Assembly: GCA_964635905.1 (NCBI GenBank)
Contig: CAZWPK010000002.1
Coordinates: forward strand, 77,621-141,620
Direction of reading: 5' to 3'
DNA: 64,000 nucleotides
Origin: an uncultured Pseudomonadales bacterium
GTDB taxonomy: Bacteria; Patescibacteriota; Microgenomatia; UBA1400; UBA12028
The notes under the pieces were generated by a model, which was not told the DNA's origin, searched no databases, and saw nothing but the letters and a program-made list of their open reading frames with translations. A program made the translations under genes and the position numbers. Of the stretch, positions 1 through 64,000 are shown piece by piece. The stretch's first letter is position 1. Each line of letters opens with the position of its first letter.

Positions 1-293
1 AAGAGATCTTGATGAAACTTCCCGTCATACCAGCAATAGGCAACCTTCACCCGATGGGATTTGGCAAAATCTAGAATTTCGTTAGGATCACAAGAATGTA
101 GACGAGGAGTATCTTTTCCGATGACGGCATCGATATTGCGATGAATAATCGTTGATCGAATTACAACGACTGGAGTAAAAACGGATCGATTGAGTAAATC
201 CGAATATACTTTAATGCGTCGTGCTCCTCCGCCCAAATCAAGCTTATCTAGGATAAGTAGAACACCGACTGGTGAATTGGTCTTCTTATTCAT
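1..293 (-). CDS. Partial CDS (N-terminal 97 aa; continues beyond window start): glycosyltransferase, GT4-like N-terminus
   Basis: Minus-strand ATG at 293..291. It is open to position 1 with no stop (MNKKTNSPVGVLLILDKLDLGGGARRIKVYSDLL...). The N-terminal ILxxDxLxxGGaeR pattern is typical of GT4/group-1 glycosyltransferases. The ORF is absent from the track because it lacks an in-window stop. It is divergent from the flippase at 335. Confidence 0.4.
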   Translation of the reverse strand, partial: MNKKTNSPVGVLLILDKLDLGGGARRIKVYSDLLNRSVFTPVVVIRSTIIHRNIDAVIGKDTPRLHSCDPNEILDFAKSHRVKVAYCWYDGKFHQDL

Positions 294-334
294 GGTCTTT
301 AGTATGGTAGTGTTCTTCGCTATAATGACTCCAG

Positions 335-1717
335 ATGAACAAACAGCTTATTGTGCGAAATGCAGGCGTCCAAACAGTCTATCAAATTGTCTCAAACATT
401 TTAGGGTTTGTCTTTACCGTTGTACTCATTAAGGCTACAAGTCAATTTGAGTTTGGTGTGTACAGCTATATTTTTTCCACCCTCGTGATTGTGAACCTGT
501 TTATTGAATTAGGAATCCCCACCTATTTCTTACGTCACTGGAGTACGCATCCGGAGGACTTTGAAAAAGAACGCCAACTGTTATTGGGTACTCGAATACT
601 GTTAACCATCCCTGTCAGTATCCTACTCTTTATTTATGTATTCTTTATTGATCGATTTGTCAGTTTAGAATTTTTACTAGCCTACGTTTACTTTCTCCTA
701 GATGGATACTTGCAACTCAATAAAATGTTCCTGTCTGCAAGAGACAAATTCCATCTAACTGCCGTAATTGATGGAAGTGAAAAAGCCATTGCCTATGGAG
801 GCGGAATCCTGATTCTATTACTTGGTGGGAAACTTTTGCAGGTCTTTGTCATCTATATCATCGGAAAACTGGTGGCAATCACCCTTTCCAATATCTGGAC
901 TGGCGGATTCAAACTTCCTCAATTTGACATTTCCAAATCCATTGAAGTTGTACGGAAATCATTGCCGTTGTTCATGTTAAGTGTGTTTGGGATTCTGTAT
1001 TTTCGTGTCGATATGTTGATTATTCGACATTTGTTGGGAGTCGCTGCAGTTGCGCCCTACAGCACGGCGTACCGATTAATGGATGCAGCAGTAATTCTGC
1101 CAGGTATTATTCTGGCTGTGTCCGTACCCACCTTAACGAAACTGTATGCGGACAAGGAAGAGGAAAAACTCACACGGTCACTGTTTTTGGCAACGCGTTA
1201 TCTTTCGGTCGTCGCTTTTTTTATCGCGGCTTGTTGTCTACTCTTTGCTAAAGAAGTCATGCTCACTGCTTTTGGATCGGAGTATGCCAGTGCGGCACCA
1301 GTGCTCCAGTTGTTCGGATTAACAATTATCGTCTTGTATTTAAATGCCCCACTCTCCTATTTCATGTACACCGGTCGAAAAGAAAAAACACACACCAAAG
1401 TCTTGGCACTACTCACAATTCTAAATGTCGTACTCAATGTTGTATTCATTCCTATCTTAGGAGTTGTTGGTGCCGCACTTGCAACACTTCTGTGTGAACT
1501 CATTGGATTCTTCTTTCTGCGCCATTTCGTCGGTCACGCTCTCCCACTGCATGCAATCGTTGCTCCTGCTCTCTGTATCACCGCTTCTGCTCTGGTAGCG
1601 ATGCTCATTAAACCCAATTGGATCATCGCAGTTTTCTTTATGGGACTAATTTACCTCTTGCTTTTATTCGTAACTCGGACTATTTCTTTTAAAGAGTTAT
1701 CTTTTCGAACAAAGTAA
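335..1717 (+). CDS. Wzx-like oligosaccharide flippase (MOP superfamily / polysaccharide biosynthesis protein)
   Basis: 460 aa with about 12 to 14 predicted TM helices and loops rich in R/K/Y. The hydropathy layout matches the polysaccharide-biosynthesis (Wzx/RfbX) family. It sits at the head of a glycosylation operon. Confidence 0.55.
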   Translation: MNKQLIVRNAGVQTVYQIVSNILGFVFTVVLIKATSQFEFGVYSYIFSTLVIVNLFIELGIPTYFLRHWSTHPEDFEKERQLLLGTRILLTIPVSILLFIYVFFIDRFVSLEFLLAYVYFLLDGYLQLNKMFLSARDKFHLTAVIDGSEKAIAYGGGILILLLGGKLLQVFVIYIIGKLVAITLSNIWTGGFKLPQFDISKSIEVVRKSLPLFMLSVFGILYFRVDMLIIRHLLGVAAVAPYSTAYRLMDAAVILPGIILAVSVPTLTKLYADKEEEKLTRSLFLATRYLSVVAFFIAACCLLFAKEVMLTAFGSEYASAAPVLQLFGLTIIVLYLNAPLSYFMYTGRKEKTHTKVLALLTILNVVLNVVFIPILGVVGAALATLLCELIGFFFLRHFVGHALPLHAIVAPALCITASALVAMLIKPNWIIAVFFMGLIYLLLLFVTRTISFKELSFRTK

Positions 1718-1725
1718 GGGATTTC

Positions 1726-2904
1726 ATGGATTACAAAATTAAATTGATTAAATCTTCTTTCTATAATGAAACGGAGACAAAAAATGCGTTGTGCGCATTC
1801 ATTCAAGATGCAAAACAGCTCTCCATTGGAACGGAATGTCTTGCGTTTGAAACTGAATTTTCCGCCTGGCAGGGTCGGAAGTACTCCGTCCTCTTTAACA
1901 GTGGTAGTTCTGCCAACTTAGCCTTAATTCAAGCCTTATTAAACATGGGGAAATTGCAACCAGGCATGAAGGTAGGCTTCTCCGGCATTACTTGGGCGAC
2001 CAATGTCATGCCGCTACTACAACTTGGTCTAATTCCCATCCCAGTAGATATTGAGCTCGATACACTCAATGTCTCCAGTCATACATTGGAACAAACACAT
2101 CAAGAACAGAAGCTTGACTGTTTATTTTTAACGAACTTACTGGGTTTTTCCGACGATATCAAAAAAATCAAGCAATTTTGTTTTAAAGAAAACATTTTAC
2201 TCTTAGAAGATAACTGTGAATCCATGGGGAGTAAGACTTCTGGGAAAATGCTTGGAAATTTCGGACTTGCTTCAACGTTCTCTTTCTTTGTAGGACATCA
2301 CATGTCTGCAATTGAGGGAGGAATGGTCTGTACGGATGATAAAGAACTGGATCGACATCTACGAATGGCACGATCGCACGGCTGGGATCGGCACCTCACA
2401 GAGAAGCAACAAAAATCACTTCGAACTGAACATGCCATTTCAGATTTTTTTGCGAAGTATACTTTTTATGATCTAGCCTACAACTTGCGACCCAATGAGA
2501 TCACAGGATTCCTTGGAAAATATCAACTCAAATTTATCGATGAAACAACGCACAAACGGGAACAAAATTTTAAAGCTCTATTGAAGATCTATGATGTCTG
2601 TGAGGATGTCTATCCTTTAGATATTCGAATGGACTTTGTTAGCAATTTTGCGATGCCACTAGTCTTTAAATCCGAACAACTCAAGGATTCCTATTGTTCT
2701 CGCTGTGAAAAACTTGGAATTGAGGTACGACCAATCGTGGGTGGGGTAATGGCAGACCAACCATTCTTTAAAAAATACATTTCTCAAACGTACAATATCC
2801 CTGTTTCCAGATTAGCTTTTAAACAAGGATTTTACTTTGCCAATAATCCTGAGCTCACCCAAGATGAGATTGAATACTTGATTGCTGCCTTTAAGAGTGA
2901 ATAA
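1726..2904 (+). CDS. DegT/DnrJ/EryC1/StrS-family PLP-dependent sugar-modifying enzyme; ColD/E1-like 3-dehydratase subtype (His-His in place of active-site Lys)
   Basis: 392 aa with a fold-type I aminotransferase signature (FNSGSSANLALIQALL ... LLEDNCESMGS). At the position where true aminotransferases carry SFHxxK, the protein reads SFFVGHHMSAIEGG. This resembles the His-for-Lys replacement of GDP-4-keto-6-deoxymannose 3-dehydratase ColD (about 388 aa) and CDP-hexulose 3-dehydrase E1. Confidence 0.6.
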   Translation: MDYKIKLIKSSFYNETETKNALCAFIQDAKQLSIGTECLAFETEFSAWQGRKYSVLFNSGSSANLALIQALLNMGKLQPGMKVGFSGITWATNVMPLLQLGLIPIPVDIELDTLNVSSHTLEQTHQEQKLDCLFLTNLLGFSDDIKKIKQFCFKENILLLEDNCESMGSKTSGKMLGNFGLASTFSFFVGHHMSAIEGGMVCTDDKELDRHLRMARSHGWDRHLTEKQQKSLRTEHAISDFFAKYTFYDLAYNLRPNEITGFLGKYQLKFIDETTHKREQNFKALLKIYDVCEDVYPLDIRMDFVSNFAMPLVFKSEQLKDSYCSRCEKLGIEVRPIVGGVMADQPFFKKYISQTYNIPVSRLAFKQGFYFANNPELTQDEIEYLIAAFKSE

Positions 2905-4130
2905 TGTCTATGCTAAATATTGCATTAGTTATCTGGCAACTTGATACCTACGGTGGCTCGATTCGTCAAATTTTAGAAGAAGCACGCTATCTGCAAAAAC
3001 AGGGACACCGCGTGGATGTTTTTGCCTATCGCGTTGATAAAGAAAAATGTTTTCCTGAATTTATCAATGAGATTAATGTTATTGCTGCCAAGCCAATTGC
3101 AATTTCCCAAGAATTTTATAATCAGTCCGATCCCATTTTGAAGCGAATAAGGGCATTCCTACGCAATGAGTGGGTACAACTTCAACAAGTACAAGCCATT
3201 GGAAATCAAATAGAAATTCAACACAAAAAGCGTGCCTATGATGTGATCAATTACCATGATCACGGAGTCTATCGATTATCAACGCGCTTCCCAACGGGAA
3301 AAAATGTGTGGATGATGAATGATCCACCCTCCTTTATTGATGCAAAAGAAAAAGGAGCATCCGAGTATGCTCAAACGACTCTCATGAAAGTGCTGGCATG
3401 GGTTGAGAAAATTCGGACAAACATCGCACTCAAAGAGATGGACACTATCGTGGTCTTGGATGAGCGAAATAAAGAAATCGTGCAGCGTCATTTTGGCAAA
3501 ACTGCTAAGGTTATTAAAAGTGGTCTGTCCATCCCTTCCGATTTAAAACAGATGCCAGTCAAAAAGAAGCGTAAGAGTATCCAGTTACTGACAACCAACA
3601 TCTTTTTTCGACATCGTCGCTATGAAGATCTTATTGAAGCTGCCCATATCCTGATCAACAAGCGAAAAGTTAAAAACGTCGCGTTTCATATCGTAGGTGA
3701 TCCTGCGCCTGACATGGGGTACTTTAAAATGATTCAAGGACTGGTACAACGCTATGGATTAACTTCCTACATTACATTCTTAGGAAAGGTAACCGAGGCA
3801 ATACTTGAACGAGAATATCGGGAAGCGGATGTCTTTGTGTTCCCAAACCATAATCAAACTTGGGGATTATCTGTCTTTGAAGCGAGTCTACGTGGGTGTG
3901 CGGTGCTCGTCAGCAAGACTGCCGGGGCACATGATGTGCTAAGCGATGGGAAAAATGCAATTTTCATCCAGCCAAAAAACCCCTCACATCTAGCAAAGCA
4001 GTTAGAACGCGTCATTACCGATGAGAAACTTCGAAACTCGATTGCCAAAGCTGGATACAATTTTGTTCGAAAAAACATATCCTGGACGCAGTATGCCAAG
4101 GATATGGAATCGATATTCAAGCATCCCTAA
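2904..4130 (+). CDS. Glycosyltransferase family 4 (group 1)
   Basis: 408 aa. The C-terminal GT-B region carries the E-x7-E-like motif (GLSVFEASLRGCAVLVSKTAGAHDVL). The ATGTCTATG start overlaps the upstream stop. Confidence 0.7.
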   Translation: MSMLNIALVIWQLDTYGGSIRQILEEARYLQKQGHRVDVFAYRVDKEKCFPEFINEINVIAAKPIAISQEFYNQSDPILKRIRAFLRNEWVQLQQVQAIGNQIEIQHKKRAYDVINYHDHGVYRLSTRFPTGKNVWMMNDPPSFIDAKEKGASEYAQTTLMKVLAWVEKIRTNIALKEMDTIVVLDERNKEIVQRHFGKTAKVIKSGLSIPSDLKQMPVKKKRKSIQLLTTNIFFRHRRYEDLIEAAHILINKRKVKNVAFHIVGDPAPDMGYFKMIQGLVQRYGLTSYITFLGKVTEAILEREYREADVFVFPNHNQTWGLSVFEASLRGCAVLVSKTAGAHDVLSDGKNAIFIQPKNPSHLAKQLERVITDEKLRNSIAKAGYNFVRKNISWTQYAKDMESIFKHP

Positions 4131-5338: not shown

Positions 5339-6451
5339 TTACGAAAGCAATTCTTTGAGAGCCGCGCGTAGGCTTGATGAGAATGCTTGTTGCGAATACG
5401 TAGTCTCTAAACCTTGCATCATGGTGTTTCGTTGTTTCTCCAATTTCATTTGGGGAAACTTACTCATCTGAACCACTATTTTTTCTATTTCTTCAATGCT
5501 GATTGATGACAGTACTTTCCCTCCACTACTGATCCCTGATTCCTTACTTACAATTGGTACAATTCCGGCTGACATCGCTGTTAGCACGCTACCCGCCATT
5601 CCTTCAGAAGCTGATGGGTAGATCATCCAGGCACACCTTGCTGCAATCGATTTAAAGGCTGGTGAGTGTGGATCCACAAATCCAAGTGGGTGAATGTTTT
5701 CGGTTTCATACAGTTCTGTATGATAGGCTGCAGCAAAGTCTTCTTCCTGGGCAAAGGGGCTACAGACCGTTAGCGTCAACTCCGGGTGGTCGCGAAAGAC
5801 TTCAAGAACTAAATCAAGTCCTTTATGAACTTGCCCACCACTTCCGAAGAAAAGAAAGTGTTTAGGATCCTTACGAAGCTTTGCCAACGGAAAGAGTGAT
5901 GAATCCACTGTATTGGGAATAAGAAAAAAAGGAACCGAAAGCGGAGGAAACGTGCGTTGCGTCTGCGTATTTCCAATCAGGAGGACCGCATCAAAGCGGT
6001 TGATCATGGTTGTATTAATTGGTTCCACTTGTCTTCTAGGTTGAAGCTGTACTCCCCGTCTTTTTTTTAAGGCTAGCAAACGCCTACGTTCCGCATCATT
6101 TTGATAATCAGGAAAACTTCCGGTAAAAAAGATAATCTTTCTTGCTCCCGTAGTAAGAAACTTCCAGTACGGTTTATCCACTGTCGGGTGAATATCAATG
6201 ACCAGGTCATAGTTTCGTTTTAATTGATAGTTCGCACCATAATTGACCACATCCACTCGATATCCAAGCTCATCAAGCACTTTGGCAATGGCTTGTACTT
6301 GCCAGTGGCTCTGGTGGGGCTGCGGTTTGAACGGAAAGAGAAAAGGATACGTGATATAGGAAAGCAAACAGACTTTTTTTGCATGGGTATGCGTAACATT
6401 CTCTGCAACTTTTGTGTCCAAGAATTCTAGTATTTTGGCAAAATTGAGCAT
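5339..6451 (-). CDS. Glycosyltransferase, GT-B fold (GT4/group 1-like)
   Basis: 370 aa. C-terminal FFGSGGQVHKGLDLVLEVF ... SASEGMAGSVLTAMSAGIVPIVSKESG matches the nucleotide-sugar binding half of GT4 enzymes. Confidence 0.55.
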   Translation of the reverse strand: MLNFAKILEFLDTKVAENVTHTHAKKVCLLSYITYPFLFPFKPQPHQSHWQVQAIAKVLDELGYRVDVVNYGANYQLKRNYDLVIDIHPTVDKPYWKFLTTGARKIIFFTGSFPDYQNDAERRRLLALKKRRGVQLQPRRQVEPINTTMINRFDAVLLIGNTQTQRTFPPLSVPFFLIPNTVDSSLFPLAKLRKDPKHFLFFGSGGQVHKGLDLVLEVFRDHPELTLTVCSPFAQEEDFAAAYHTELYETENIHPLGFVDPHSPAFKSIAARCAWMIYPSASEGMAGSVLTAMSAGIVPIVSKESGISSGGKVLSSISIEEIEKIVVQMSKFPQMKLEKQRNTMMQGLETTYSQQAFSSSLRAALKELLS

Positions 6452-6468: not shown

Positions 6469-8004
6469 CTACCACGTAACTGCGATTACTTTTGAAGGTT
6501 TACATTCCGTTGCTGTCATTGTCCCGAGGAATATCGAAATACATGCTTTTCTTGGATCTCGCTTTGTTAACGGTGTAATCACGTCTGTACCTTCATTCTG
6601 GGTCGTTTGGATGCTTGATTGAAGCTGTGTACCTAAAGAAAGATCATCAGTCGAGTGTAGTGCATGTGATCGAAGGTAGATGCTGTTTGGCAGTTTCTCC
6701 TGTCGAAATTGCACTTGGATGGCGTGGATAATTTCAAGATCATTGATGGAACTCGATTCCAAGATAATGTCAGAAGTCTCCTCGACGTCACGCATGGCTT
6801 CAAGTCCCATGAAATATGATTGTGTCAACGCATGATAAGCCTGCACCCGAGATTTTAGAACCCAGAGTTGAGAACGCTGCCAGACTCCAATCACTATACA
6901 TACTGACACAATGAATAAGGCGACTCTACTGGGTCTAGCTTCAAGACGATCAAGCACCATTCTTTTGAAAAGAAACAACAGGCTTACGACAATCAGTAGT
7001 TTGTAAAAAAGTCCTGGAAAATCGTAACGAATATTGGTTGGCCACTGTCCATTGTAAAAAACGAACTGTGAAACGAATAACGTTCCTGCCGTGATCCAAG
7101 TCCAAGAAAGATGTGCAAAATATCGCTTCCATATCGGTGATGGCACATCTCTAGCTAACCACAGAAAGCCTGCACTACCGATCAACAGTCCGATGACCGT
7201 TTTACTCTGGAGCATGACCAAAAGTAACCCTATTCTTGAAACACCCAAGCTGTTCCCGTAGACGTCGACCCCAACCACTGAAGATAATCGCAAAAGATAG
7301 AGGATGACAAAAATACTAGAGAAAAAACTGACGAGTACTGGAAGAATTGAGAGAAACGGTTGTCTGCTAGTCTGTCGATTGAGAACATACATTCCTAGGG
7401 TGGGAACAACCATAATGATCATATTCTCTTTGGAAAGAATTGAAATGGCGCATCCTACTGAAAGTAGTAGTGTGCTCCAACGATCACGTTTTTCTTGTTG
7501 ATAATACAGTCTAATCACACCCCACGCCCACAACAGAAGTCCCAACAAACTGTAGCTTTCGGATGGTCCAAGCCTGCCAATAATATCCGCCCAAAATGCC
7601 AATGTGAAAAACCATCCACTGATAGTTCCTGCCAGAACTGCTCCAAGGATGCGTTCAAGCAGAAGCCAACACGTATAAACAGAACACGCAAATAGGCAAA
7701 TCCTCGCCAAATACCAGAAGTTTAGATGACTTCCCCACACCAAGAGTTCAAGAGGACGCAACACGTTATAAACTGGTCTGTATCTTCCCGTGCTACTTAA
7801 ATCCCGTTGCCATAAACCAATCACTTGAGAGACAGAAAGTCTCTCTTTACCTTGTAGATGGAGGACTAATTCATGGTCATCAATCGGAGATAGGGCATTA
7901 AAAAGACTTGGAGAAAAAACAAATAGTGCTAACCCAAAACTCAATACCAAAATGACTATTCGTTGCAACCAAGTGTTGGTACTTTTGGAACTCTTAATTT
8001 CCAT
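6469..8004 (-). CDS. Polytopic membrane protein, putative GT-C-fold glycosyltransferase
   Basis: 511 aa, more than 10 TM helices, an acidic motif (IDDHE) in the first extracytoplasmic loop, and a C-terminal soluble domain. This architecture is typical of ArnT/PMT-like enzymes. Confidence 0.45.
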   Translation of the reverse strand: MEIKSSKSTNTWLQRIVILVLSFGLALFVFSPSLFNALSPIDDHELVLHLQGKERLSVSQVIGLWQRDLSSTGRYRPVYNVLRPLELLVWGSHLNFWYLARICLFACSVYTCWLLLERILGAVLAGTISGWFFTLAFWADIIGRLGPSESYSLLGLLLWAWGVIRLYYQQEKRDRWSTLLLSVGCAISILSKENMIIMVVPTLGMYVLNRQTSRQPFLSILPVLVSFFSSIFVILYLLRLSSVVGVDVYGNSLGVSRIGLLLVMLQSKTVIGLLIGSAGFLWLARDVPSPIWKRYFAHLSWTWITAGTLFVSQFVFYNGQWPTNIRYDFPGLFYKLLIVVSLLFLFKRMVLDRLEARPSRVALFIVSVCIVIGVWQRSQLWVLKSRVQAYHALTQSYFMGLEAMRDVEETSDIILESSSINDLEIIHAIQVQFRQEKLPNSIYLRSHALHSTDDLSLGTQLQSSIQTTQNEGTDVITPLTKRDPRKACISIFLGTMTATECKPSKVIAVTW

Positions 8005-52661: not shown

Positions 52662-53408
52662 TTAGTTGTATTGACCTTGTAGATCCGCTATTCGAATTCG
52701 AAGGATATCGATAAACATCCTAACGGAATCTTTGATTGGATCAACTCTATCCGTTTTTGCATAGTTCCAAACGATGGGTACTTCCGCAATCGAAAACTTT
52801 TCTTTATTTGCAATGTAGAGTAGTTCCACATCAAATGCTCCAGTGAAAGCACCGCGCATCTTCCCTTTTGAAGAATACACAACTACTTTTGGAGCAAGTT
52901 TCTCTACAGCCTGAGCTGAAAAAAGCTTGAACCCGCATTGAGTGTCATGGATTCCCGGTATAGCGATGAGCTGGACACAGAGGTTGAACACTTTTCCCAT
53001 CCAGTGACGATGAAACGGTTCTTTTTTTCGTTGCGCCCCAGCAATTTCACGTGATCCAATCACAATTGCATTCCCCTTTTTAGTTTCCGGAAGCAGTTTT
53101 TCAATCTCAGAGATAGGAGTTGCTTGATCAAAATCGGTGAAGAGACGCCAATCCCCGGTCGCTTGTAGCAGGGCGTCGATGACTGTGGGTCCTTTACCAC
53201 GATGTGGAAGTGCAAATACACGCACTTCTTTTTTTGTTTTCGCAAAGTCTTTGAGTGATTGCAGGGTACCATCACTCGATCCGTCATCAGCCAAAATGAT
53301 TTCCCAAGAATAGTTTTTTGCTTTCAAGAAACGATACACTTGGTCAAGTACACCTTTTGAAATGTTGGAGTCCTCATTATAGGAAGGAATAACTACCGAG
53401 AGAAACAT
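52662..53408 (-). CDS. Polyprenyl-phosphate sugar synthase-like GT2 (Dpm1/GtrB family)
   Basis: MFLSVVIPSYNEDSNISKGVLDQV ... ILADDGSSDGT and FTDFDQATP. 248 aa, soluble. Confidence 0.7.
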   Translation of the reverse strand: MFLSVVIPSYNEDSNISKGVLDQVYRFLKAKNYSWEIILADDGSSDGTLQSLKDFAKTKKEVRVFALPHRGKGPTVIDALLQATGDWRLFTDFDQATPISEIEKLLPETKKGNAIVIGSREIAGAQRKKEPFHRHWMGKVFNLCVQLIAIPGIHDTQCGFKLFSAQAVEKLAPKVVVYSSKGKMRGAFTGAFDVELLYIANKEKFSIAEVPIVWNYAKTDRVDPIKDSVRMFIDILRIRIADLQGQYN

Positions 53409-55015: not shown

Positions 55016-56542
55016 TTATCGTACCAATACCACCACGTTCGGTCCATTTGGGATGCTGAATGCATCAATAATGTCTCTATTCGGCCAAATAGCCACTTTA
55101 TACTGCGGCGTGTCTAATGGATTTTGTTTGTGTGCCTCATCGATCACAAACAAACGTTTAAATGAGTGGACCTCCTCTTCACTTGCTGGACGTCCGTGGT
55201 TCGTCGTCAAAAAGTAGCGATAATTCATCCCTAAAAAGTCATTATTCTCTGATAGAAGCAAAATATCATACTTCTCTTTGGCGACTGTGCGTTGTTGAAT
55301 CTCTTCTGCTGTCTGTTTGAATACATCAACATTCATTCCCAATACATGCTTTCCCGGGTAGTTATTCAAACTACAAACTAGAATTGCTCCTAGAGCTACG
55401 ATGACTAATGGACGAAGCAGGATAGATTTCCACAGTGCGCTGATGAAGACAGCGAGCAGAAGGATGGAAATTGGGAATAGGAAACCTAAGTAGTGATTAA
55501 AAATTGATTCCTTATACAGTGACAAGACTCCAATTCCGATCACAAAAAAAGCGAACACAACTTTAACTCCACGTCGAATGTCTGGAGACAGGCTTTTTAA
55601 ACTAAACCAAGTCTTTATCAGTAAATACATCCCTACCAAAAGTGAGACAAGTGCAGCAGAAGTGGGAATTTTAATCCCAAAGATTTCACTTAGGTTTCGA
55701 ACTGCCAACGCAATCCAGGAGTAAAAGATGGCTGAGAGTTCACTTAAACCTCTAAAGTGACTTGCATCCTCGCTACTTGATCCACCAACAAAAAAAGAAA
55801 GGAATGCGCGAACGTTGAGAAAATCATGTTTAATGTCGTAAATCAAAATCGGGATCACCGAGAACATGACAATAAGGATTGCCAGTCCCGTTGAGCGAAT
55901 AAAAATGGGACTAACTTCTTTATCTTTAATTTGACGATACAGTTCTACCAACCAAAAAATCCCCGCGATTCCAATGACGATCAATGTCAGATAGTGTAAC
56001 TGCGATAAGATTGCGGCACATAATCCAATCAATACCCAATATTGATATTTACCTTGTAACGTTTTATTTACTGCCCATACAACGAGTAATGAAAACAACG
56101 GAACAATATTTGGATTCCAAGAGAACCTGACGTTCTCAATCACGATGGGAGCAATTGCATACAATCCCATTGCCACCATCGCCGTTCGCTTCCCAACTAA
56201 TTCTTTGCCTAGAAGATAAATGAGTGCCAGCGTCAGGACACCAACAAATGCCACTGCATAGGCCGGACCCGACGGATCCGGATAACTAAACATTAAGGGC
56301 AAAACCATGAAGTAATAATAAAATGGACCTAGATACATGTTGCCGACACTGGTAACAGGTCCAATAAAAGCTGGATCTTTATCCATCAGGATTCCACGCG
56401 CAATGAGAGCGTCTCTTCCTTGATCTCCTAAAAACTGCATTGTGGCTCGAAGTCGGTAAAATCGCAAAAAAGTCCCGATCGCCAAGATGACTAAAAAAAG
56501 AATGAATGCTCTTTTTTTCTTATCAAAAAACCTAGTGACCAT
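55016..56542 (-). CDS. Polytopic membrane protein, putative GT-C glycosyltransferase (DQGRD...GP subfamily)
   Basis: First loop QFLGDQGRDALIARGILMDKDPAFIGPVTS. I use the internal Met as the start to limit overlap with the upstream gene. Confidence 0.45.
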   Translation of the reverse strand: MVTRFFDKKKRAFILFLVILAIGTFLRFYRLRATMQFLGDQGRDALIARGILMDKDPAFIGPVTSVGNMYLGPFYYYFMVLPLMFSYPDPSGPAYAVAFVGVLTLALIYLLGKELVGKRTAMVAMGLYAIAPIVIENVRFSWNPNIVPLFSLLVVWAVNKTLQGKYQYWVLIGLCAAILSQLHYLTLIVIGIAGIFWLVELYRQIKDKEVSPIFIRSTGLAILIVMFSVIPILIYDIKHDFLNVRAFLSFFVGGSSSEDASHFRGLSELSAIFYSWIALAVRNLSEIFGIKIPTSAALVSLLVGMYLLIKTWFSLKSLSPDIRRGVKVVFAFFVIGIGVLSLYKESIFNHYLGFLFPISILLLAVFISALWKSILLRPLVIVALGAILVCSLNNYPGKHVLGMNVDVFKQTAEEIQQRTVAKEKYDILLLSENNDFLGMNYRYFLTTNHGRPASEEEVHSFKRLFVIDEAHKQNPLDTPQYKVAIWPNRDIIDAFSIPNGPNVVVLVR

Positions 56543-56565
56543 AGGAATACAGAAAATAACTTTTC

Positions 56566-57783
56566 CTAACTTTTTGCGGAACGCCAAATCACTTTGGAAT
56601 AGATCGTGTAATTTACGACCATCCCAATTGCTGTTGCACAGACCAACCACGCAGTTTTTGAGAGTGATGTCTGTCCGGTAAGTCCTGTACCAGCACTCAC
56701 AACGGTTAACTGAATTGCCACCGCGGCAAACGAGCTGACATTAAATTGAAGAAATTTGAGAAGCGTTGAAACTGCGTCCGTACTCTGTCGATCCTGAAAT
56801 GTCCAAGAGTTATTCAAAATAAAGTTTGAGATAATTGCAAATTCCGCTCCGATAGCTGAAGCCAATCCAGAAGCATTCACAAACCCTAAGAACGGAAGAG
56901 TGGAAATCGATTCTGCCAAGGTCGAGATGGCACTGATTCTGGAAAGGATGAAGAGCAAACTAAAGTTAATGAGAAAGCCCGTTCCACCAACTACCCCAAA
57001 TTTAAATAAACGGGAGACGACAATTTCCTTATACCGTGCCGTTAAAATATATAGCAGCGCATGTTTTATATAATCCGGACCAAGTTTAGACTTTCCCACT
57101 TTTCGATCCACAAACTGAATTGGGACTTCAACGATTTTAAAACCTCGCCGAACGGCTTTATGCAAAAACCCAATTTGGAACGTGTAACCGGTAAACTGTT
57201 GATCTTCCATCTCCGCTTCAATTGCGCTGAATACGGATTTGCGAATTGCTCTAAAGCCAGTAGTCCAGTCACGAATGGCAAAATGCGTAAGCACAATCGT
57301 GTTTACTAAGTTCCCAACAACGCTTAAAAACTTTCGATCGAATCCCCAATCATCCGGAATAGAACCGCCTTTGATATACCGAGATCCTAGAACTAAATCT
57401 GCACCTTGATCGATAGCAGCAATGAATTCAGGAATTTTCTTTGGATCGTGTGAAAAATCAGCGTCAAACTCGAATATGATGTCTGCTGCAAGTGCGTTGA
57501 AAGCATGTCGCATTCCAAGCAGGTAGGCTACTCCTAGACCTTGTTTCTTCTTATTTGAAAGGAGGTGAACGTTTTTATAGGTATGCTCAAAGTCTTTTAC
57601 TGTTTTTCCCGTTTCATCAGGACTGCTATCGTCTACCACCAAAATATGCATGTCCCAGTGCGGTACTACTTTAAAGATCTCCTGCAAGGCGGGAATCATT
57701 TTCGAAATGTTCTCTCGTTCGTTGTATGTTGGAATGATGATGATGGCTCGTTGTTGTGCCATAAATTGAACCGACCCTATCAA
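56566..57783 (-). CDS. Polyprenyl-phosphate sugar synthase GT2 (Dpm1/GtrB-like) fused to C-terminal GtrA-like membrane domain
   Basis: The N-terminus IIIIPTYNERENISKMIPAL ... LVVDDSSPDETG ... FDADFSHDP is a Dpm1/Ppm1 signature. The C-terminal about 130 aa have 4 TM helices (FKFGVVGGTGFLINFSLLFIL...), typical of GtrA. Confidence 0.7.
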   Translation of the reverse strand: MIGSVQFMAQQRAIIIIPTYNERENISKMIPALQEIFKVVPHWDMHILVVDDSSPDETGKTVKDFEHTYKNVHLLSNKKKQGLGVAYLLGMRHAFNALAADIIFEFDADFSHDPKKIPEFIAAIDQGADLVLGSRYIKGGSIPDDWGFDRKFLSVVGNLVNTIVLTHFAIRDWTTGFRAIRKSVFSAIEAEMEDQQFTGYTFQIGFLHKAVRRGFKIVEVPIQFVDRKVGKSKLGPDYIKHALLYILTARYKEIVVSRLFKFGVVGGTGFLINFSLLFILSRISAISTLAESISTLPFLGFVNASGLASAIGAEFAIISNFILNNSWTFQDRQSTDAVSTLLKFLQFNVSSFAAVAIQLTVVSAGTGLTGQTSLSKTAWLVCATAIGMVVNYTIYSKVIWRSAKS

Positions 57784-57841: not shown

Positions 57842-58810
57842 TTATAGCATTTCTGCTTGTAATTCTGCCTCCACCATAATCTTCACGAGTTCCTTAAAGG
57901 AAGTTTTTGGAACCCATCCGAGCTTTTCTTTAGCTTTCGTACTGTCCCCAATAAGTAGTTCCACTTCGGCTGGACGATCATAACGACCATCGTGTTCAAT
58001 GACGGCTTCCCAATTATCAACACCAGCGACGGCACAAGCTTCCTGCACAAATTCTCGTACAGAATGCGTTTCACCCGTTGAAATGACGTAGTCATCTGGT
58101 TGATCTTGTTGCAGCATCAGCCACATTGCTTCTACGTAGTCTTTGGCATATCCCCAGTCACGCTTAGCGTCCAGATTGCCCAGTTTCACTGTTTTCTGTT
58201 TTCCATATTTCACTCTGGCAACTCCATTTGCAATTTTTCGGGTGACAAATTCTAATCCTCTTCGGGGTGATTCGTGATTAAACAAAATTCCAGAGACAGC
58301 ATACAGATTGTAGGATTCGCGATAATTGACCGTGATCCAGTGACCATAGACCTTTGCCACACCATAGGGAGAACGTGGATAGAATGGAGTACTTTCCTTT
58401 TGTGGAACAGCTTGCACTTTACCAAACATTTCCGACGATGATGCTTGATAGAATCGAGCTTGTGGACACGACACATGCAAAGCTTCCAACATCCGTGTCA
58501 CGCCAATTCCAGTAAATTCGCCTGTTAGGACTGGCTGCTCCCAAGATGCATGCACAAAGGATTGGGCGGCAAGGTTGTAAACTTCATCCGGCTGAATTCG
58601 ATCGAGGGCACGAGTCATGGAATGCTGATCCAATAAGTCTCCAGAAATGAGTTCAAAGTTTTCGTTATGGATTGTTTCACCCAATCGAGAGTAATTGAGC
58701 GTACTCGTCCGACGCGTCATTCCATACACTTTATATCCCTTTTCCAATAACAGCTCTGCCAAGTAGGACCCGTCCTGTCCGGTTACCCCGGTAATAAATG
58801 CTTTTTTCAT
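57842..58810 (-). CDS. gmd: GDP-mannose 4,6-dehydratase
   Basis: KKAFITGVTGQDGSYLAELLLEKGYKVYGMTRRTS ... YNLAAQSFV aligns residue-by-residue with Gmd. I start at MKKAFITG, because the track start at 58852 overlaps the upstream gene. Confidence 0.9.
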   Translation of the reverse strand: MKKAFITGVTGQDGSYLAELLLEKGYKVYGMTRRTSTLNYSRLGETIHNENFELISGDLLDQHSMTRALDRIQPDEVYNLAAQSFVHASWEQPVLTGEFTGIGVTRMLEALHVSCPQARFYQASSSEMFGKVQAVPQKESTPFYPRSPYGVAKVYGHWITVNYRESYNLYAVSGILFNHESPRRGLEFVTRKIANGVARVKYGKQKTVKLGNLDAKRDWGYAKDYVEAMWLMLQQDQPDDYVISTGETHSVREFVQEACAVAGVDNWEAVIEHDGRYDRPAEVELLIGDSTKAKEKLGWVPKTSFKELVKIMVEAELQAEML

Positions 58811-58826
58811 AACAAAGAAATCCTTT

Positions 58827-59783
58827 CTACGTACGCGCTCTCCACTCCTCAATGATTTTTTCTAGTTCCTCATTGATGGAAATCTGTAGCTCCCAACCTA
58901 ATGATTGTATCTTTCTATTGTCGGCAATGAGTTTAGGCACGTCAAGGGGACGTAAGCGAGCTTCATCTTGTTCAACAGTAATAGGTACAGTGGACAATCC
59001 GACAAGTTGGTTCACAATCTCCTGCATTTGGATGCCAGTTCCAGACCCGATGTTGTAGACGTCACCCACTGCTCCCTTCTCAAGAAGTACGATATACGCT
59101 CGGACCATATCTTTAACACTCGTAAAATCTCGAATTCCTTGTAGGTTCCCTACTTCCAATGTTTGCTTTTTTCCCTGTTCAATTTCTACAATTTGCTTGA
59201 CAAATGATGGCACTGCAAAATCACCGGTCTGCCGAGTACCGATATGATTGAATGGTCGCGCTCGTACAATATTTAGCTTGTAACTTAAGTAATAGCTATT
59301 GGAGAGTAAGTCTTGGGTCGTCTTGGAAACGGCATAGGGGTTAACCGGATTGAGACTGACGTGTTCGTCAATATAATCCAAATCCAAGTCAACAACACCA
59401 TACTCTTCGGCGGATCCGATGCTTAAAACTCGCGCTTGCGGACAAATTGCCTTCACTCCATCCAAAAGATTTAGTTGTAAGTTAATGTTATTGGTAAATA
59501 ACTCTCGAGCTTTTTCAAAGCTTTTGCCGACATACGCAAACGAGGCTAAATGGAAGATCCAGTCAGGTTTAACGGTCTTAAGCAAAGCTTGCGTTGCTTC
59601 GCCATTGGAAAGATCAACTTGAATATAGTGATCGTCGGCAAGAAATTTGACGTTCTCCGGAGGGGGAGAAAAGGTTGTAGAGTAAATGTTGGTATATCCC
59701 GAAGCAAGTAGTTCTTCAATTAAATGAGATCCAGCAAAGCCAGTTCCCCCGGTAACTAAAATGCGTGGTTGATCACTTGGCAT
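58827..59783 (-). CDS. NAD(P)-dependent nucleotide-sugar epimerase/reductase; possibly GDP-6-deoxy-D-mannose reductase (Rmd-like)
   Basis: Rossmann motif ILVTGGTGFAGSHL, catalytic YAVSK, and an RPFNHIG motif shared with Rmd-type GDP-4-keto-6-deoxymannose reductases. It lies directly upstream of gmd in the same operon. Confidence 0.55.
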   Translation of the reverse strand: MPSDQPRILVTGGTGFAGSHLIEELLASGYTNIYSTTFSPPPENVKFLADDHYIQVDLSNGEATQALLKTVKPDWIFHLASFAYVGKSFEKARELFTNNINLQLNLLDGVKAICPQARVLSIGSAEEYGVVDLDLDYIDEHVSLNPVNPYAVSKTTQDLLSNSYYLSYKLNIVRARPFNHIGTRQTGDFAVPSFVKQIVEIEQGKKQTLEVGNLQGIRDFTSVKDMVRAYIVLLEKGAVGDVYNIGSGTGIQMQEIVNQLVGLSTVPITVEQDEARLRPLDVPKLIADNRKIQSLGWELQISINEELEKIIEEWRART

Positions 59784-59789: not shown

Positions 59790-61109
59790 TTACAATCCAA
59801 TCCCAATATATTGTAACCCAGTCTTCTCAATTGTACTCCGCCCATATTGATTTCGCGTATCAATTACTGTTGCAGCGGATGAAACGAGTCCTGCAAGTGT
59901 AGCGGCAGTCAGTGCACTGTACTCTTTCCACTCGGTTAATAACAAGACGACATCCGCACCCTTGAGTGTTTCCATCATGTCACTGTTTAAGGAAAAGTGT
60001 GCAGACTCTTCAATCCCTACTTTAGAAAACCACGCTTTCGCAGCCAAGAGAGCCATCGGATCGGTGGCTACGACAAAAGCTCCCGCGTGCAAGAGTAAGG
60101 GGATCACCTTGGTACTGGGTGCTTCCCGCATATCATCGGTGTTGGGTTTAAATGAGAGACCTAAGACGGCGACCTTCTTTCCCGAAAATCCCCCCACTGA
60201 TTCTTCAAACTGTCGCAGTAGTTTTACAATGCGTTCTTCATTGAGCTGATTGATGGTCACCATTAAGTTGTCTTCTTGACCAACTGCGCGTGCATAGGCT
60301 GCGAGTTCTTTGACATCTTTTGGAAAACAACTTCCACCATAACCCAGTCCTGGATACCAATAATGACTTCCAATTCGTTTATCCAGTCCAATTCCTTTGA
60401 TCACCTCTTCAATGTTGGCACCATTCGCTTCACACAAGTTTGCAATCTGATTGATAAAGGTGATCCGTGTGGCTAAATAGGCATTGGCTGCGTACTTACA
60501 CATTTGGGCGCTATCCGGATGCATAACTAAGATTTTGCTCGTTAAGGGCTCATGGAGTTCTTTGAGAATCTTTACCACTCCTGGAACTGTAGCCCCAATA
60601 ATCACGCGATCAGGATGCAAGGTATCGGCAACAGCAGATCCTTCTTTGAGAAATTCAGGTAAGGAGACCACATGAAAGACTGTTGTCTTCCCTGCTAAAG
60701 CCTCTTTCATTTTCTGTTCTACTTTGCCACAGGTACCCGGTGGAACAGTGCTTTTGATGGCTACGATTGCGTTATCCTTCAAGTATGGAGCCATACTCTC
60801 GGCTGCAGCAAAGACAAAACGAAGATCTGCCTGACCATCGGGAGCAGAAGGTGTTCCAACGGCAATCATAATCACATCTGCTTTAGAAACCGCGTCGTTA
60901 TAGGAAGTGGTGAACGACAGTTTTTTCTGGCTCATTCCTTTGAGTAGCAACTCTTCCAAATCTGGCTCAAAGAATGGGACCTTTCCGGTTTTTAAACTCT
61001 CAATGCGTTTGGGGTCAATATCTAAACCTATAACCTTGTTTCCTAACTTGGCAAAGACTGCAGCAGAGACGACACCTACAAAGCCCGTACCTATAATGGT
61101 AATATTCAT
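59790..61109 (-). CDS. ugd: UDP-glucose 6-dehydrogenase
   Basis: NITIIGTGFVGVVSAAVFA Rossmann motif and catalytic GGSCFPKD. 439 aa. Confidence 0.9.
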   Translation of the reverse strand: MNITIIGTGFVGVVSAAVFAKLGNKVIGLDIDPKRIESLKTGKVPFFEPDLEELLLKGMSQKKLSFTTSYNDAVSKADVIMIAVGTPSAPDGQADLRFVFAAAESMAPYLKDNAIVAIKSTVPPGTCGKVEQKMKEALAGKTTVFHVVSLPEFLKEGSAVADTLHPDRVIIGATVPGVVKILKELHEPLTSKILVMHPDSAQMCKYAANAYLATRITFINQIANLCEANGANIEEVIKGIGLDKRIGSHYWYPGLGYGGSCFPKDVKELAAYARAVGQEDNLMVTINQLNEERIVKLLRQFEESVGGFSGKKVAVLGLSFKPNTDDMREAPSTKVIPLLLHAGAFVVATDPMALLAAKAWFSKVGIEESAHFSLNSDMMETLKGADVVLLLTEWKEYSALTAATLAGLVSSAATVIDTRNQYGRSTIEKTGLQYIGIGL

Positions 61110-61837: not shown

Positions 61838-62502
61838 TGACAATTCATTTCTTAACTCTCTTTCCATCGATCTATGAAGGTCCCTTATCGGAAAGCATTC
61901 TCAAGCGTGCTGTGCAAAAAGGTATTGTTTCCTTTAACCTGATTAATATTCGTGACTTTTCTACGGACAAACACAAAACGGCTGACAATCCCCCTTACGG
62001 CGGTGGACCAGGAATGGTGATGATGATCGAACCGATCGACAAAGCACTTGCATCAATTGGGGCAAAAAAAGGAACACCAAATCAAAAGATCATTTTATTA
62101 TCTGCCAAGGGCACACCGTACACCCAGCCTGTTGCACGGGAACTTTCTACCATCGATACCTTAATTTTTATCTCCGGCCACTACGAAGGGGTGGACGAAC
62201 GCGTTGCGCTACATCTAATCGATGAGGAAATTCGGATTGGTGACTATGTCCTCACGGGTGGTGAATTAGCGTCCATGGTAATTGCCGACAGTGTCGTGCG
62301 CTTGCTTCCAGGTGCACTCGGAGATGACAAAAGTAGTGTTGAAGAATCGCATTCCAGTGCAGGGTTTATAGAATATCCACATTTCACACGACCAGCTACC
62401 TACAACGGCTGGCAAGTTCCAAGAATACTGCTCAACGGAAATCATGCTGAAATTGCCAAATGGAGAGCGACAGAGGCTGCTAACGCCACGAAAACTTCTT
62501 AA
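61837..62502 (+). CDS. trmD: tRNA (guanine37-N1)-methyltransferase
   Basis: MTIHFLTLFP ... NPPYGGGPGMVMMIEPIDKAL ... ISGHYEGVDERV ... IGDYVLTGGELASMVIADSVVRLLPG are canonical SPOUT/TrmD motifs. Confidence 0.9.
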   Translation: MTIHFLTLFPSIYEGPLSESILKRAVQKGIVSFNLINIRDFSTDKHKTADNPPYGGGPGMVMMIEPIDKALASIGAKKGTPNQKIILLSAKGTPYTQPVARELSTIDTLIFISGHYEGVDERVALHLIDEEIRIGDYVLTGGELASMVIADSVVRLLPGALGDDKSSVEESHSSAGFIEYPHFTRPATYNGWQVPRILLNGNHAEIAKWRATEAANATKTS

Positions 62503-62860
62503 TTGCAGCCCACATTGCCAGCATCCCGACACTATCAAAACCAATATCCATTAGATGGGGTGTCCGACCCGGAACGAAGGATTGGTGAAACTCATCGCTT
62601 ACGGCAAAAAGAATGGTAAAAATGGCAGCTCTAGTAAACTGCTGTCTACTGCCAGTTGAAAAAGCACGCACTGCAAACAGATACAGCAATGCATAGACAG
62701 TCATGTGGGCAGATTTTTTGAACACAAAATCTAATACTCCACTGGGAGCTCCAGGCAAAACTGATTGTGAGGAGAGAAAAAAGATCAGTCCACACCAAAG
62801 GATCAATGTCAGATAACGAATATACTGATGCTCACTAATGTTGTTGAGTGTTTTTCGCAT
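62480..62860 (-). CDS. VanZ-like family membrane protein
   Basis: 126 aa with 3 to 4 TM helices and a VanZ-type motif (FKKSAHMTVYALLY; DK/K..H...Y). Confidence 0.55.
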   Translation of the reverse strand: MRKTLNNISEHQYIRYLTLILWCGLIFFLSSQSVLPGAPSGVLDFVFKKSAHMTVYALLYLFAVRAFSTGSRQQFTRAAIFTILFAVSDEFHQSFVPGRTPHLMDIGFDSVGMLAMWAAIKKFSWR

Positions 62861-62864
62861 AATG

Positions 62865-64000
62865 TTATTTTAGGAAAGGGAGTGGAAACGGTAACTTCCC
62901 ATGCATTCTGGTAAACCAATCTAACCCCAAATAGAGCATTGAACCGGAAAAGAGAACGGTTCCGCTGCCAATGGCAATGACTGCGGGTACGACGGTCGCT
63001 TTCGCAGATGAACTAGCTTCTGGGATCTCTTTTTCACGATGTGCTTCAATCTCACTTGTCCCTAGAATCTGACCGAATGGCTCAATTGTTTGAGCACTTT
63101 GACTGCTTCCAGGGGTTTGTTGTGTAAGAGCTGCTTGCGTGGGTGATGGAGTAGAGGTCGAGCTAGGACTTAATGATGCCGACGCTGAAGCTGTTGGGGA
63201 GGGTGTCGGCGTTGGAGTTGTCACCGTATTTGGCCCATTTTTAGTCGGGGTTCCAGTCTCTTTCCAATCTGTTCCACTCTTTGCAAATGAGAAGCCTTTC
63301 TTGCAACTGACAGTATAGGAATACTCATCTACCTTTTCCTTTGCCCCATTGTGTAGTCGAACTGTGTCCCCGGTGTTCGTTAACATGCCGATATCAAATT
63401 CCAAAATCTCAATGATGCGATACGATTTTGCAGGAATGAGTAATTCTTTGATCGGTTGGGTGTGATTATCTTTATCTTTTATTTCCCAGTTGATTAACTT
63501 CACTTCCGCCTCATTTCCGTTATAAACCTCAATCCATTCGTGCTCATCCTCCATCTGACAGGCATAGACTTCAGATAAAGAGATCCCGGTTGGTTGGATG
63601 ACGATAGTGGGTGTCGGTGTTGGTGTCGGTGTGGGAGAGGAAGCAGGGGTTGCACTGGAACTGGGTGTTGGAGTTCCAACGAGTAAAGTGACCGGTTCAC
63701 TCGTTAGGGTAATTGGAAGTAATTGGTCCGAAGGGACATAGGACTGTTTGCTATCTGTCTGGATCCAGGTAGTTCCTGAACGTTGCCAAGAATTGGACAT
63801 GAAGTCACAGCCTTTAAACAAGTTTCCAGTTTCTCCATAGGAAAAACTCTCGACAGTCGTCCCGTCGCGCTTTAGATACACGATATCGGTATCGGCATTA
63901 TAGATGCCTCTGGTTGCCGGTATCTCGACATAGATAATCTTTCCTGCCGGGATCACTGCATTAAGATAATAGGTATTGGTCGCACTACCCAACTCATCTG
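62865..64000 (-). CDS. Partial CDS (5' end beyond window): secreted/surface protein with lamin-tail-domain (LTD)-like repeats, Pro/Thr/Ser-rich linkers and C-terminal TM anchor
   Basis: The frame is open to the window edge; the track M at 63992 is really TTG and the frame continues upstream. There are two LTD-like beta modules (EWIEVYNGNEAEVKLINWEIKD ... NTGDTVRLHNGAKEKVDEYSY, and IYVEIPATRGIYNADTDIVYLKRDGTTVESFSY). Between them are PTPTPTPT and S/T-rich linkers. The C-terminus has a hydrophobic helix (VVPAVIAIGSGTVLFSGSMLYLGL). Confidence 0.5.
   Translation of the reverse strand, partial: DELGSATNTYYLNAVIPAGKIIYVEIPATRGIYNADTDIVYLKRDGTTVESFSYGETGNLFKGCDFMSNSWQRSGTTWIQTDSKQSYVPSDQLLPITLTSEPVTLLVGTPTPSSSATPASSPTPTPTPTPTIVIQPTGISLSEVYACQMEDEHEWIEVYNGNEAEVKLINWEIKDKDNHTQPIKELLIPAKSYRIIEILEFDIGMLTNTGDTVRLHNGAKEKVDEYSYTVSCKKGFSFAKSGTDWKETGTPTKNGPNTVTTPTPTPSPTASASASLSPSSTSTPSPTQAALTQQTPGSSQSAQTIEPFGQILGTSEIEAHREKEIPEASSSAKATVVPAVIAIGSGTVLFSGSMLYLGLDWFTRMHGKLPFPLPFLK

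Follow-up and report, generated by a model that had tools for sequence, protein, structure and literature searches.

In multi-component transmembrane glycosylation, a GT-A glycosyltransferase (GT) makes a sugar linked to C55 polyprenyl phosphate (C55-P-sugar), a GtrA- or Wzx-type flippase carries it across the membrane, and a GT-C enzyme transfers the sugar outside the membrane (PMC8035078; PMC5836110). In three-component systems, the genes for the GT-A and the GT-C are neighbors, and a small membrane protein sometimes aids the cytoplasmic GT-A (PMC8035078). For the candidate phyla radiation (CPR), a general remark reads the abundance of glycosyltransferases as a sign of polysaccharides, glycoproteins, or an S-layer that is glycosylated (PMC5220378). 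In this study, we analyzed a 64-kb stretch of DNA (hereafter the window; positions 77,621 to 141,620 of contig CAZWPK010000002.1, assembly GCA_964635905.1), whose host is a Woesebacteria-like ultra-small member of Patescibacteria (CPR). The genomes of Patescibacteria are tiny (~1 Mb), and the organisms spend their lives on other cells, with a surface of little-known chemistry as the point of contact. Pfam and NCBIfam scans of all open reading frames (ORFs) showed that glycan-related genes fill nearly all of positions 335-61109 of the window, and 15 of the encoded proteins belong to the GT-C superfamily, representing at least seven sequence families. We consider it probable that this cluster encodes a scaled-up multi-component transmembrane glycosylation system for a cell-envelope glycoconjugate.

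In the window, 54 ORFs reach a length of 150 aa or more. A hydropathy scan detected 19 polytopic membrane ORFs, 18 of which are at least 350 aa long with at least seven predicted transmembrane (TM) segments. The density of large polytopic ORFs was 2.8 per 10 kb, compared with 0.32 per 10 kb in a control of 1.23 Mb of DNA around trmD from 80 other bacteria. The 15 GT-C candidates have 7-14 predicted TM segments each, and their assignment was based on Pfam for eight, a precomputed MptA_B match for one, paralogy for three, the fold of an AlphaFold model for two, and profile-profile comparison for one. The first-pass annotation, made from the letters of the window alone, had counted about 16 GT-C-like polytopic proteins, which was essentially right; two polytopic proteins are still without a family. 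That the large membrane proteins are mostly transporters, polymerases, or other proteins, or that the region is an artefact or a mobile island, is extremely improbable in our view. For eight of the 19 polytopic ORFs, the local Pfam copy gave no match, which leaves room for such functions, but paralogy, fold, profile comparison, or a precomputed Pfam match then placed six of these eight in GT-C. Hidden Markov model (HMM), paralogy, profile, and fold checks of the large membrane proteins identified only two transporters, both Wzx-type flippases.

Six proteins matched PMT_2 at or above its gathering score (26.1 bits), namely, orf11 (12571..14457, minus strand; E = 3.5e-7, 31.0 bits; 13 TM segments), orf18 (21649..22899, plus; 5.3e-7, 30.4 bits), orf27 (33422..35146, plus; 4.9e-7, 30.5 bits; HEDE motif after TM1), orf30 (36499..38346, minus; 2.3e-11), orf43 (49839..51638, minus; 1.1e-8; ADEAIY motif), and orf47 (55016..56650, minus; 7e-8, 33.3 bits). 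One more, orf46 (53456..54991, minus), fell just under this score (2.6e-5, 24.9 bits) and matched orf47 in BLASTP (4e-16). Two of the eight Pfam-assigned proteins, orf30 (1.2e-6, 28.8 bits) and orf43 (6.8e-7, 29.5 bits), also passed the PMT model (PF02366; cut-off 22.7 bits). The start of orf30 probably lies downstream of the annotated one, as its ortholog has 558 aa. The eighth, orf41 (48146..49894, minus), passed PTPS_related (2.6e-9, 36.6 bits; cut-off 26.4) and YfhO (5.8e-7, 28.7 bits; cut-off 28.5). An identical protein in another assembly carries a precomputed match to PF26314, which places orf44 (51407..52660, minus) in the MptA_B family. Paralogy assigned orf22 (25568..27259, minus; 11 TM segments), a YfhO-like protein with a BLASTP match to orf41 of 1.7e-30 over 556 residues; orf23 (27261..29048, minus), with matches to orf47 (1e-9), orf46 (4e-8), and orf18 (2e-4) and with PMT_2-group profile links of 98-99% by hhalign; and orf32 (39042..40580, minus), with matches to orf30 (1e-36) and orf27 (5e-16), a WDE motif after TM1, and a weak match to Agl23 (8e-7). 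The remaining three are orf6 (6469..8004, minus), a probable GT-C from a family without a Pfam model, assigned from its homologues, an IDDHE motif, and hhalign; orf17 (19929..21644, plus), a member of the DUF8201/LIC_10190 family; and orf25 (30262..32325, minus; 677 aa), from another family without a Pfam model. Tandem paralogue groups had been proposed, and this holds for orf46/47 and orf27/30/32; other adjacent GT-C genes come from different families.

Comparison of family profiles by hhalign connected these proteins in a network, in which group A was linked to group B at 99.5%, B to group C at 98.5%, A to orf43 at 98.0%, and orf11 to the orf17 family at 96.7%; the links of B to the orf25 family (93.3%) and to orf44 (84.3%) were weaker. 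Profiles enriched with metagenome homologues were needed for this, and a small nine-sequence paralogue profile gave only 62-84%. Single-sequence phmmer searches of orf25, orf6, and orf17 against the Protein Data Bank (PDB) found no match, and profile searches (alignments A1 and A2) found nothing relevant. Nearly all the GT-C candidates carry an acidic motif (DE, EE, DQ, HD, IDDHE, WYD, or DG) after early TM helices, including EE and DE in the PMT-domain proteins orf30 and orf43. In three family alignments, D42 of orf6, D114 of orf17, and D143 of orf25 were invariant or nearly so. These motifs may be the counterpart of the catalytic Asp/Glu in the first extracytoplasmic loop of GT-C enzymes; in orf25, the conserved Asp comes after several helices, not after TM1.

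The three less characterized families were analyzed separately. The orf6 family has 57 homologues, some of which, from Leptospira, are named RgtA/B/C/D-like in UniRef; D42 is invariant and lies inside the IDDHE motif directly after TM1, and the family profile matched the PMT_2 and YfhO groups of the window at 95.8% and 94.6%, respectively. The orf17 family is rare (a set of 1.84 billion proteins yielded only 74 representatives at E<1e-3), and the AlphaFold model of orf17 is a helical bundle with a pLDDT of 92.4. The orf25 family comprises 119 clusters, every one of them annotated as hypothetical and without a Pfam domain, and the model of orf25 is likewise a helical bundle (pLDDT 93.5, pTM 0.94). 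For both models, the best PDB matches were all GT-C enzymes. The 20 top Foldseek matches of orf25 were oligosaccharyltransferase (OST) subunits, DPY19, and AftA; OST catalytic subunits were the best fold matches, and the C-terminal domain of orf25 is AglB-like. These results show, at the level of predicted fold, that the orf25 and DUF8201/LIC_10190 families are two poorly annotated families that can now be placed in GT-C. We rejected the assignment of orf25 to the OST family proper (STT3/AglB/PglB) because none of 63 family members carries a WWDYG-type motif (W[WYF]D[YFWN]G), despite the fold matches. Against the eukaryotic and archaeal lumenal enzymes (STT3/AglB/PglB OST, ALG3/9/12, PMT, and DPY19), identity was 8-13% and TM-scores were only 0.38-0.45; unlike the lumenal OST and PMT enzymes, the window proteins lack WWDYG in the orf25 family, and Pfam reported no MIR domain in the PMT-type proteins of the window. 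Bacterial Pmt proteins are not known to carry MIR, which eukaryotic members have in addition to the PMT domain.

A lamin-tail-domain (LTD) surface protein with a C-terminal membrane anchor is encoded 1.7 kb from the cluster (62865-63992, minus, running off the window end). It has long Thr/Pro/Ser-rich linkers (TPTPSSSATPASSPTPTPTPTPT; TTPTPTPSPTASASASLSPSSTSTPSPT) with TPTPTP repeats and is, judged by these linkers, a plausible candidate for an O-glycosylation acceptor adjoining the cluster. Protein acceptors are therefore possible, in view also of the two PMT passes and the OST-like architecture of orf25. A stronger version of this idea, in which the array mainly glycosylates Ser/Thr/Pro-rich surface proteins (S-layer, pilins, LTD adhesins) and not a wall polysaccharide, would also fit with our finding no polysaccharide polymerase or ligase in the window, but we judge it unlikely. 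MptA/B-type enzymes are known for polymer acceptors and are not known to act on protein. The lack of WWDYG and MIR described above speaks against a mainly protein-directed array, and the 14 cytoplasmic GTs and two Wzx flippases indicate a sizeable lipid-linked oligo- or polysaccharide. YfhO-type enzymes, too, are known for polymer and not protein acceptors (PMC5836110, PMC8035078). We favor a wall or membrane-anchored glycopolymer as the acceptor, because of the YfhO/MptA-type members and the large set of cytoplasmic GTs.

The window encodes 12 proteins of glycosyltransferase family 2 (GT2), five of family 4 (GT4), and two Wzx flippases. Three of the 12 GT2 proteins resemble polyprenyl-phosphate-sugar synthases and are, by sequence, candidates for this function. 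The first, orf21 (24915..25622, minus), matched NCBIfam PpgS (2.5e-28) and AglJ (9e-28); beside it is the gene for a small DUF2304 membrane protein (24580..24951, minus; PF10066, 2e-17), which lies between a GT2 gene at 23829..24605 and orf21 and is kept in relatives. The second, orf45 (52662..53408, minus), matched Glycos_transf_2 (6.3e-25) and, in NCBIfam, PgfS, ArnC, and Dol-P-hexose transferase. The third, orf48 (56566..57783, minus), is a GT2 (Glycos_transf_2, 2.8e-26) fused at its C terminus to a GtrA_DPMS_TM domain (7.4e-16), and its best NCBIfam matches were PgfS, Dol-P-hexose transferase, AglJ, ArnC, and PpgS. All three synthase genes directly adjoin GT-C genes: orf48 adjoins orf47/46, orf45 adjoins orf44/43/41, and orf21 with the DUF2304 gene adjoins orf22/23. 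This matches the pairing of GT-A with GT-C genes in three-component systems (PMC8035078). The idea that the GT-C enzymes use polyprenyl-phosphate-linked donors fits this gene context. For flipping, the GtrA_DPMS_TM domain of orf48 and the two Wzx proteins are candidates. Wzx flippase 1 has ~13 TM segments (335..1717, plus; Polysacc_synt 1.8e-21, with Polysacc_synt_3 and MurJ), and Wzx flippase 2 matched Polysacc_synt_3 at 5.7e-39 (46639..48180, minus).

The nine remaining GT2 proteins find their matches among enzymes that build polymers in the cytoplasm, for example TuaG, EpsD, and rhamnosyltransferases. With their Glycos_transf_2 E values, all of them on the minus strand unless noted, they are encoded at 9926..10738 (1e-24; top NCBIfam match TuaG-type), 11598..12566 (5e-15), 15351..16340 (plus strand; 4.2e-7), 23829..24605 (1.6e-25), 35143..36039 (9.9e-16), 41845..42771 (4.6e-20), 43876..44706 (3e-17), 44664..45707 (a weak match, 4.8e-5, with 23.8 bits against a cut-off of 23.3), and 45709..46632 (2.7e-10). 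The five GT4 proteins, identified by Glycos_transf_1, are encoded at 2904..4130 (plus; 1.3e-26), 5339..6451 (minus; 8.3e-9), 14363..15556 (minus; 4.5e-17), 32322..33434 (minus; 2.8e-23), and 42768..43979 (minus; 5.2e-14). The earlier totals of 12 GT2, two Wzx, and three Dpm1-like synthases were thus reproduced, the last by best NCBIfam matches that lie under the cut-offs, whereas the six to seven GT4 came down to five.

Nucleotide-sugar and modification genes are distributed through the cluster, in agreement with the toolkit proposed in the first-pass annotation, and cover GDP-fucose, UDP-glucuronic acid (UDP-GlcA), and amino sugars. At the right end, GDP-mannose 4,6-dehydratase (GMD; 57842..58852, minus; TIGR01472, 448.8 bits against a cut-off of 415), a short-chain dehydrogenase/reductase (SDR) of the nucleoside-diphosphate (NDP)-sugar epimerase/dehydratase type (58827..59783, minus; GDP_Man_Dehyd 6.7e-59, Epimerase 2.8e-49), and an NDP-sugar dehydrogenase of the UDP-glucose 6-dehydrogenase type (59790..61109, minus; TIGR03026, 425.7 bits against 189.8; TuaD, 1e-126) are encoded in a row. 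A GDP-L-fucose-synthase-like SDR (22878..23825, minus; Epimerase 1.7e-56; Fcl 3e-83, under the cut-off) and a GalE-like NDP-sugar epimerase (29347..30246, minus; Epimerase 2.3e-64; GalE 3.6e-68, under the cut-off) were also found. The other enzymes are a DegT/RfbH-like pyridoxal-phosphate enzyme for amino- or deoxy-sugars (1726..2904, plus; DegT_DnrJ_EryC1 3e-52; RfbH 1e-54, under the cut-off); an AsnB-type glutamine amidotransferase of the exopolysaccharide-associated type (8062..9933, plus; Asn_synthase 7.5e-84; TIGR01536 above the cut-off), whose top match was the amidotransferase of the XrtA/PEP-CTERM system; an S-adenosylmethionine-dependent methyltransferase (10735..11613, minus; Methyltransf_11 1.5e-22); a hexapeptide sugar O-acetyltransferase (16324..16875, plus; Hexapep 1e-14; top NCBIfam match WbbJ); and a NUDIX hydrolase (36036..36494, minus; NUDIX 2.6e-17).

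The analysis shows the families of the genes, their order and conservation, and the folds predicted for their products; from these, we infer the donors, the direction of flow, and the acceptors of the following model. Cytoplasmic enzymes would first make GDP-6-deoxyhexose or fucose (GMD and the Fcl-like protein) and UDP-GlcA (the dehydrogenase), together with epimerized, aminated, amidated, O-acetylated, and O-methylated sugar derivatives. The nine GT2 and five GT4 proteins would assemble lipid-diphosphate-linked oligosaccharides, which the two Wzx proteins would flip across the membrane. In parallel, orf48, orf45, and orf21 would supply lipid-monophosphate single-sugar donors, one of these synthases being fused to a GtrA-like domain and one paired with DUF2304. 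Outside the membrane, each of the 15 GT-C enzymes would take sugars from these donors and attach them to the nascent glycan, wall polymers, or surface proteins rich in Ser/Thr/Pro, and acetyl, methyl, and amide groups would modify the glycan.

Several observations weigh against this system. The three putative synthases all score under the NCBIfam equivalog cut-offs, and three of them face 15 GT-C proteins, which would mean that donors are shared or that for some of the GT-C enzymes they are made elsewhere; some GT-C paralogues could also be inactive. The searches of the window did not detect an initiating phosphoglycosyltransferase, Wzy, a chain-length regulator, LCP, or a WaaL-type ligase, and none of the 54 ORFs matched Bac_transf, Glycos_transf_4 (WecA), Wzy_C, Wzz, or LCP, so the Wzx branch is incomplete there. 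The missing genes may lie outside the window, as the cluster extends leftward in a related locus (L088, described below). Two polytopic proteins were not placed in GT-C. One is orf15 (16856..19036, minus; 726 aa), a 9-TM domain followed by a methyltransferase (Methyltransf_23, 7.6e-27, residues 507-660); its membrane domain gave no Pfam, NCBIfam, or hhalign signal, and a metagenome scan with it was empty. In two relatives, this region consists of two overlapping genes for a 447-aa membrane protein and a 280-aa methyltransferase, and the fused product is also predicted on a Logan contig from the same sample; either a genuine fusion or a frameshift common to both sequences could account for orf15. 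The other is orf16 (19033..19968, minus), a 311-aa protein with no family and no Pfam, NCBIfam, or hhalign signal, for which the only ortholog is in the related locus L089.

A bolder proposal, which we regard as doubtful, is that a complex branched envelope glycan is built almost wholly outside the cytoplasm by 10-15 GT-C enzymes fed by ~3 lipid-phosphate sugars, with orf25 transferring or ligating glycans en bloc in the manner of an OST. Microgenomatia/Woesebacteria-type Patescibacteria would then have an assembly line that is 'ER-lumen-like' or 'mycobacteria-like', in which the orf25 family would take the oligosaccharide exported by Wzx and join it to the wall or to surface proteins rich in Ser/Thr/Pro. 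If true, such a role of orf25 would explain the missing Wzy, WaaL, and LCP genes.

Comparison with related genomes showed that orf1-orf35 are colinear in two of them, with 53-94% amino acid identity overall: a 96-kb contig from SRR21621036 (58-94%) and GCA_018060955.1, labelled Candidatus Woesebacteria (53-93%). To the left of the position corresponding to the window edge, the SRR21621036 relative (L088) encodes a GT4, a Gfo/Idh/MocA oxidoreductase, an acetyltransferase, a DegT protein, and a GT2. The housekeeping genes sodA and greA (window positions 40683-41827) hold the same place inside the cluster in both colinear relatives (L083, L089), which argues for an old chromosomal arrangement and not an acquired island. 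Cluster sub-blocks adjoin trmD in three more distant Patescibacteria/Paceibacterota loci, and the orf48-orf47-orf45-orf44 block is kept in one locus (L003). One trmD locus, L004 (CAZQWI010000017.1), is labelled 'uncultured Pseudomonadales', and its synteny of trmD and glycan genes is shared with the Patescibacteria loci; judged by this synteny, the public record probably contains an error of taxonomy or binning here. Among GTDB species representatives, none had a TrmD close to that of the window (best identity 54%).

Similar arrays were also found in metagenomes. Among 19 independent loci of at least 12 kb with an orf25 homologue, 17 hold 3-11 GT-C homologues within ±10 kb, the densest having 11 in 22 kb, and the number and order of GT-C types vary between loci. 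Two loci, L101 (Ga0209515_10000006, on a 594-kb contig) and L102, have 10-11 GT-C homologues per ~20 kb and are denser than the window. In a distant relative, an orf25 homologue of 37% identity is surrounded by a YfhO-like gene, three PMT_2 genes in tandem, and additional genes for large membrane proteins. The contiguous island of the first-pass annotation therefore stands as a conserved stretch of 61 kb or more, but it is not a one-off, as GT-C arrays like it occur widely in the lineage.

Identity to the two relatives was 53-81% for orf6, orf11, orf17, orf18, orf22, orf27, orf30, and orf32, 82-90% for orf23, and 75-87% for orf25, compared with ~90% for the sugar-nucleotide enzymes. The mostly lower conservation of the GT-C proteins, the absence of orf22 from the colinear Woesebacteria contig, and the variation in GT-C types between loci could mean that the GT-C genes serve as alternative decoration modules with some redundancy, which would vary the surface, for instance as a defense against phages or for host recognition; only a subset would be active at once, in place of one assembly line for a single elaborate glycan. 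We regard this as very unlikely, because gene order and content are otherwise stable in three genomes down to 53% identity, and the GT-C genes come from at least seven distant families and are not recent duplicates; invertible promoters, recombinases, and mobile elements were not noticed, and no systematic search for them was made.

An assembly or binning artefact and a mobile island were likewise tried as explanations and rejected. GC content is even across the window (0.40-0.46), no tRNA gene is present in the 64 kb, the family scans found no integrase among the window ORFs, housekeeping genes are embedded, and relatives are colinear; neither atypical composition, nor a tRNA/integrase boundary, nor a patchy distribution was seen. 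Proteins identical to the products of orf51, orf24, orf17, and orf15, the four looked up, are encoded on Logan contigs from run SRR8893623 or from sister runs, and an NCBI contig of 205,957 bp encodes an identical orf17 product and near-identical orf25 and orf6 products (same 90% cluster). These results indicate that the cluster is a conserved chromosomal supercluster, a lineage-wide trait and not mobile.

Beyond 61109, the description of nearly all 64 kb as glycan-related no longer applies, and sodA, greA, and trmD, once listed as the only non-glycan genes, are joined by five others. Besides the LTD gene and a 229-aa ORF that is not obviously glycan-related (61148-61837), these include a 333-aa HD-like ORF (4021-5022, plus), which Pfam did not match and which NCBIfam matched weakly to the HD region of Cas3g. 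It is flanked by two GT4 genes that are 17 bp apart in the colinear L088 and, for this reason, looks like a window-specific insertion of ~1.2 kb. A 227-aa protein with an HLTILG motif (38169-38852, minus; no family assigned), possibly 2H-phosphoesterase-like on the strength of this motif, and a 74-aa DUF1653 protein (38812-39036, minus) are encoded between two GT-C genes, a position kept in relatives. An ORF of 161 aa (49267-49752, minus), nested out of frame in orf41 with no family and no homologue in relatives, is almost certainly spurious.

A block of at least 61 kb with 15 GT-C genes takes up several percent of a ~1-Mb genome, and it implies that a complex extracytoplasmic glycan is central to Patescibacteria of this type. 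The cluster also supplies parts that can be tested: three candidate lipid-sugar synthases, GT-A/GT-C pairs, and a candidate acceptor protein. In the literature searched, which covers few of the subscription journals, we found no paper on GT-C enzymes or mannosyltransferases in CPR/Patescibacteria. The enzymology is familiar; the scale, the lineage, and the two poorly recognized GT-C families (orf25 and DUF8201) are new.

Among the nearest known systems are the Gram-positive and GtrABC-type systems (CsbB/GtcA/YfhO, GtlA/GtlB, GacI/GacJ/GacK/GacL, and CsdAB/CD/EF). Like these three-component systems, the window has putative synthases (orf48, orf45, and orf21 with DUF2304), two Wzx flippases, and GT-C enzymes of the YfhO and PMT_2 types, and orf21 with DUF2304 resembles the pair of synthase and small membrane partner GacI/GacJ (PMC8035078). 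In three-component systems, each donor is served by one GT-C, and a polymer made elsewhere is decorated with a single sugar, whereas the window combines 15 GT-C proteins of at least seven families with three putative synthases in one 61-kb block, and teichoic-acid or rhamnan backbone genes were not identified in it. With Wzx/Wzy O-antigen and capsule loci, the window shares two Wzx proteins, many GT2 and GT4 proteins, nucleotide-sugar genes, and acetyl- and methyltransferases; by contrast, the Wzy, initiating phosphoglycosyltransferase, Wzz, and ligase of those loci were not found in the window, and their GT-C number is normally zero, or one to two. The assembly of arabinogalactan, lipomannan, and lipoarabinomannan in mycobacteria and corynebacteria (Emb, Aft, MptA/B/C, PimE, and Rv3779) uses many GT-C enzymes and few polyprenyl-phosphate donors to build a branched extracytoplasmic glycan, with PpgS/Rv3632 as a synthase and its small membrane partner. 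The mycobacterial Rv3779-aftA-embCAB-aftB region holds approximately six GT-C genes, and the earlier claim, which allowed a classical locus one or two at most, was overstated; with 15 in 61 kb, the cluster is still far denser than that region. The window resembles this assembly in its MptA_B-family member (orf44) and its PpgS-like/DUF2304 pair; it gave no Emb- or Aft-family sequence matches, and genes of the decaprenyl-phospho-arabinose pathway were not seen in it. Unlike the mycobacterial genes, the cluster belongs to another phylum, is dominated by PMT_2 and YfhO types together with two poorly described families, and holds 15 GT-C genes in 61 kb, a local density above that of any system known to us.

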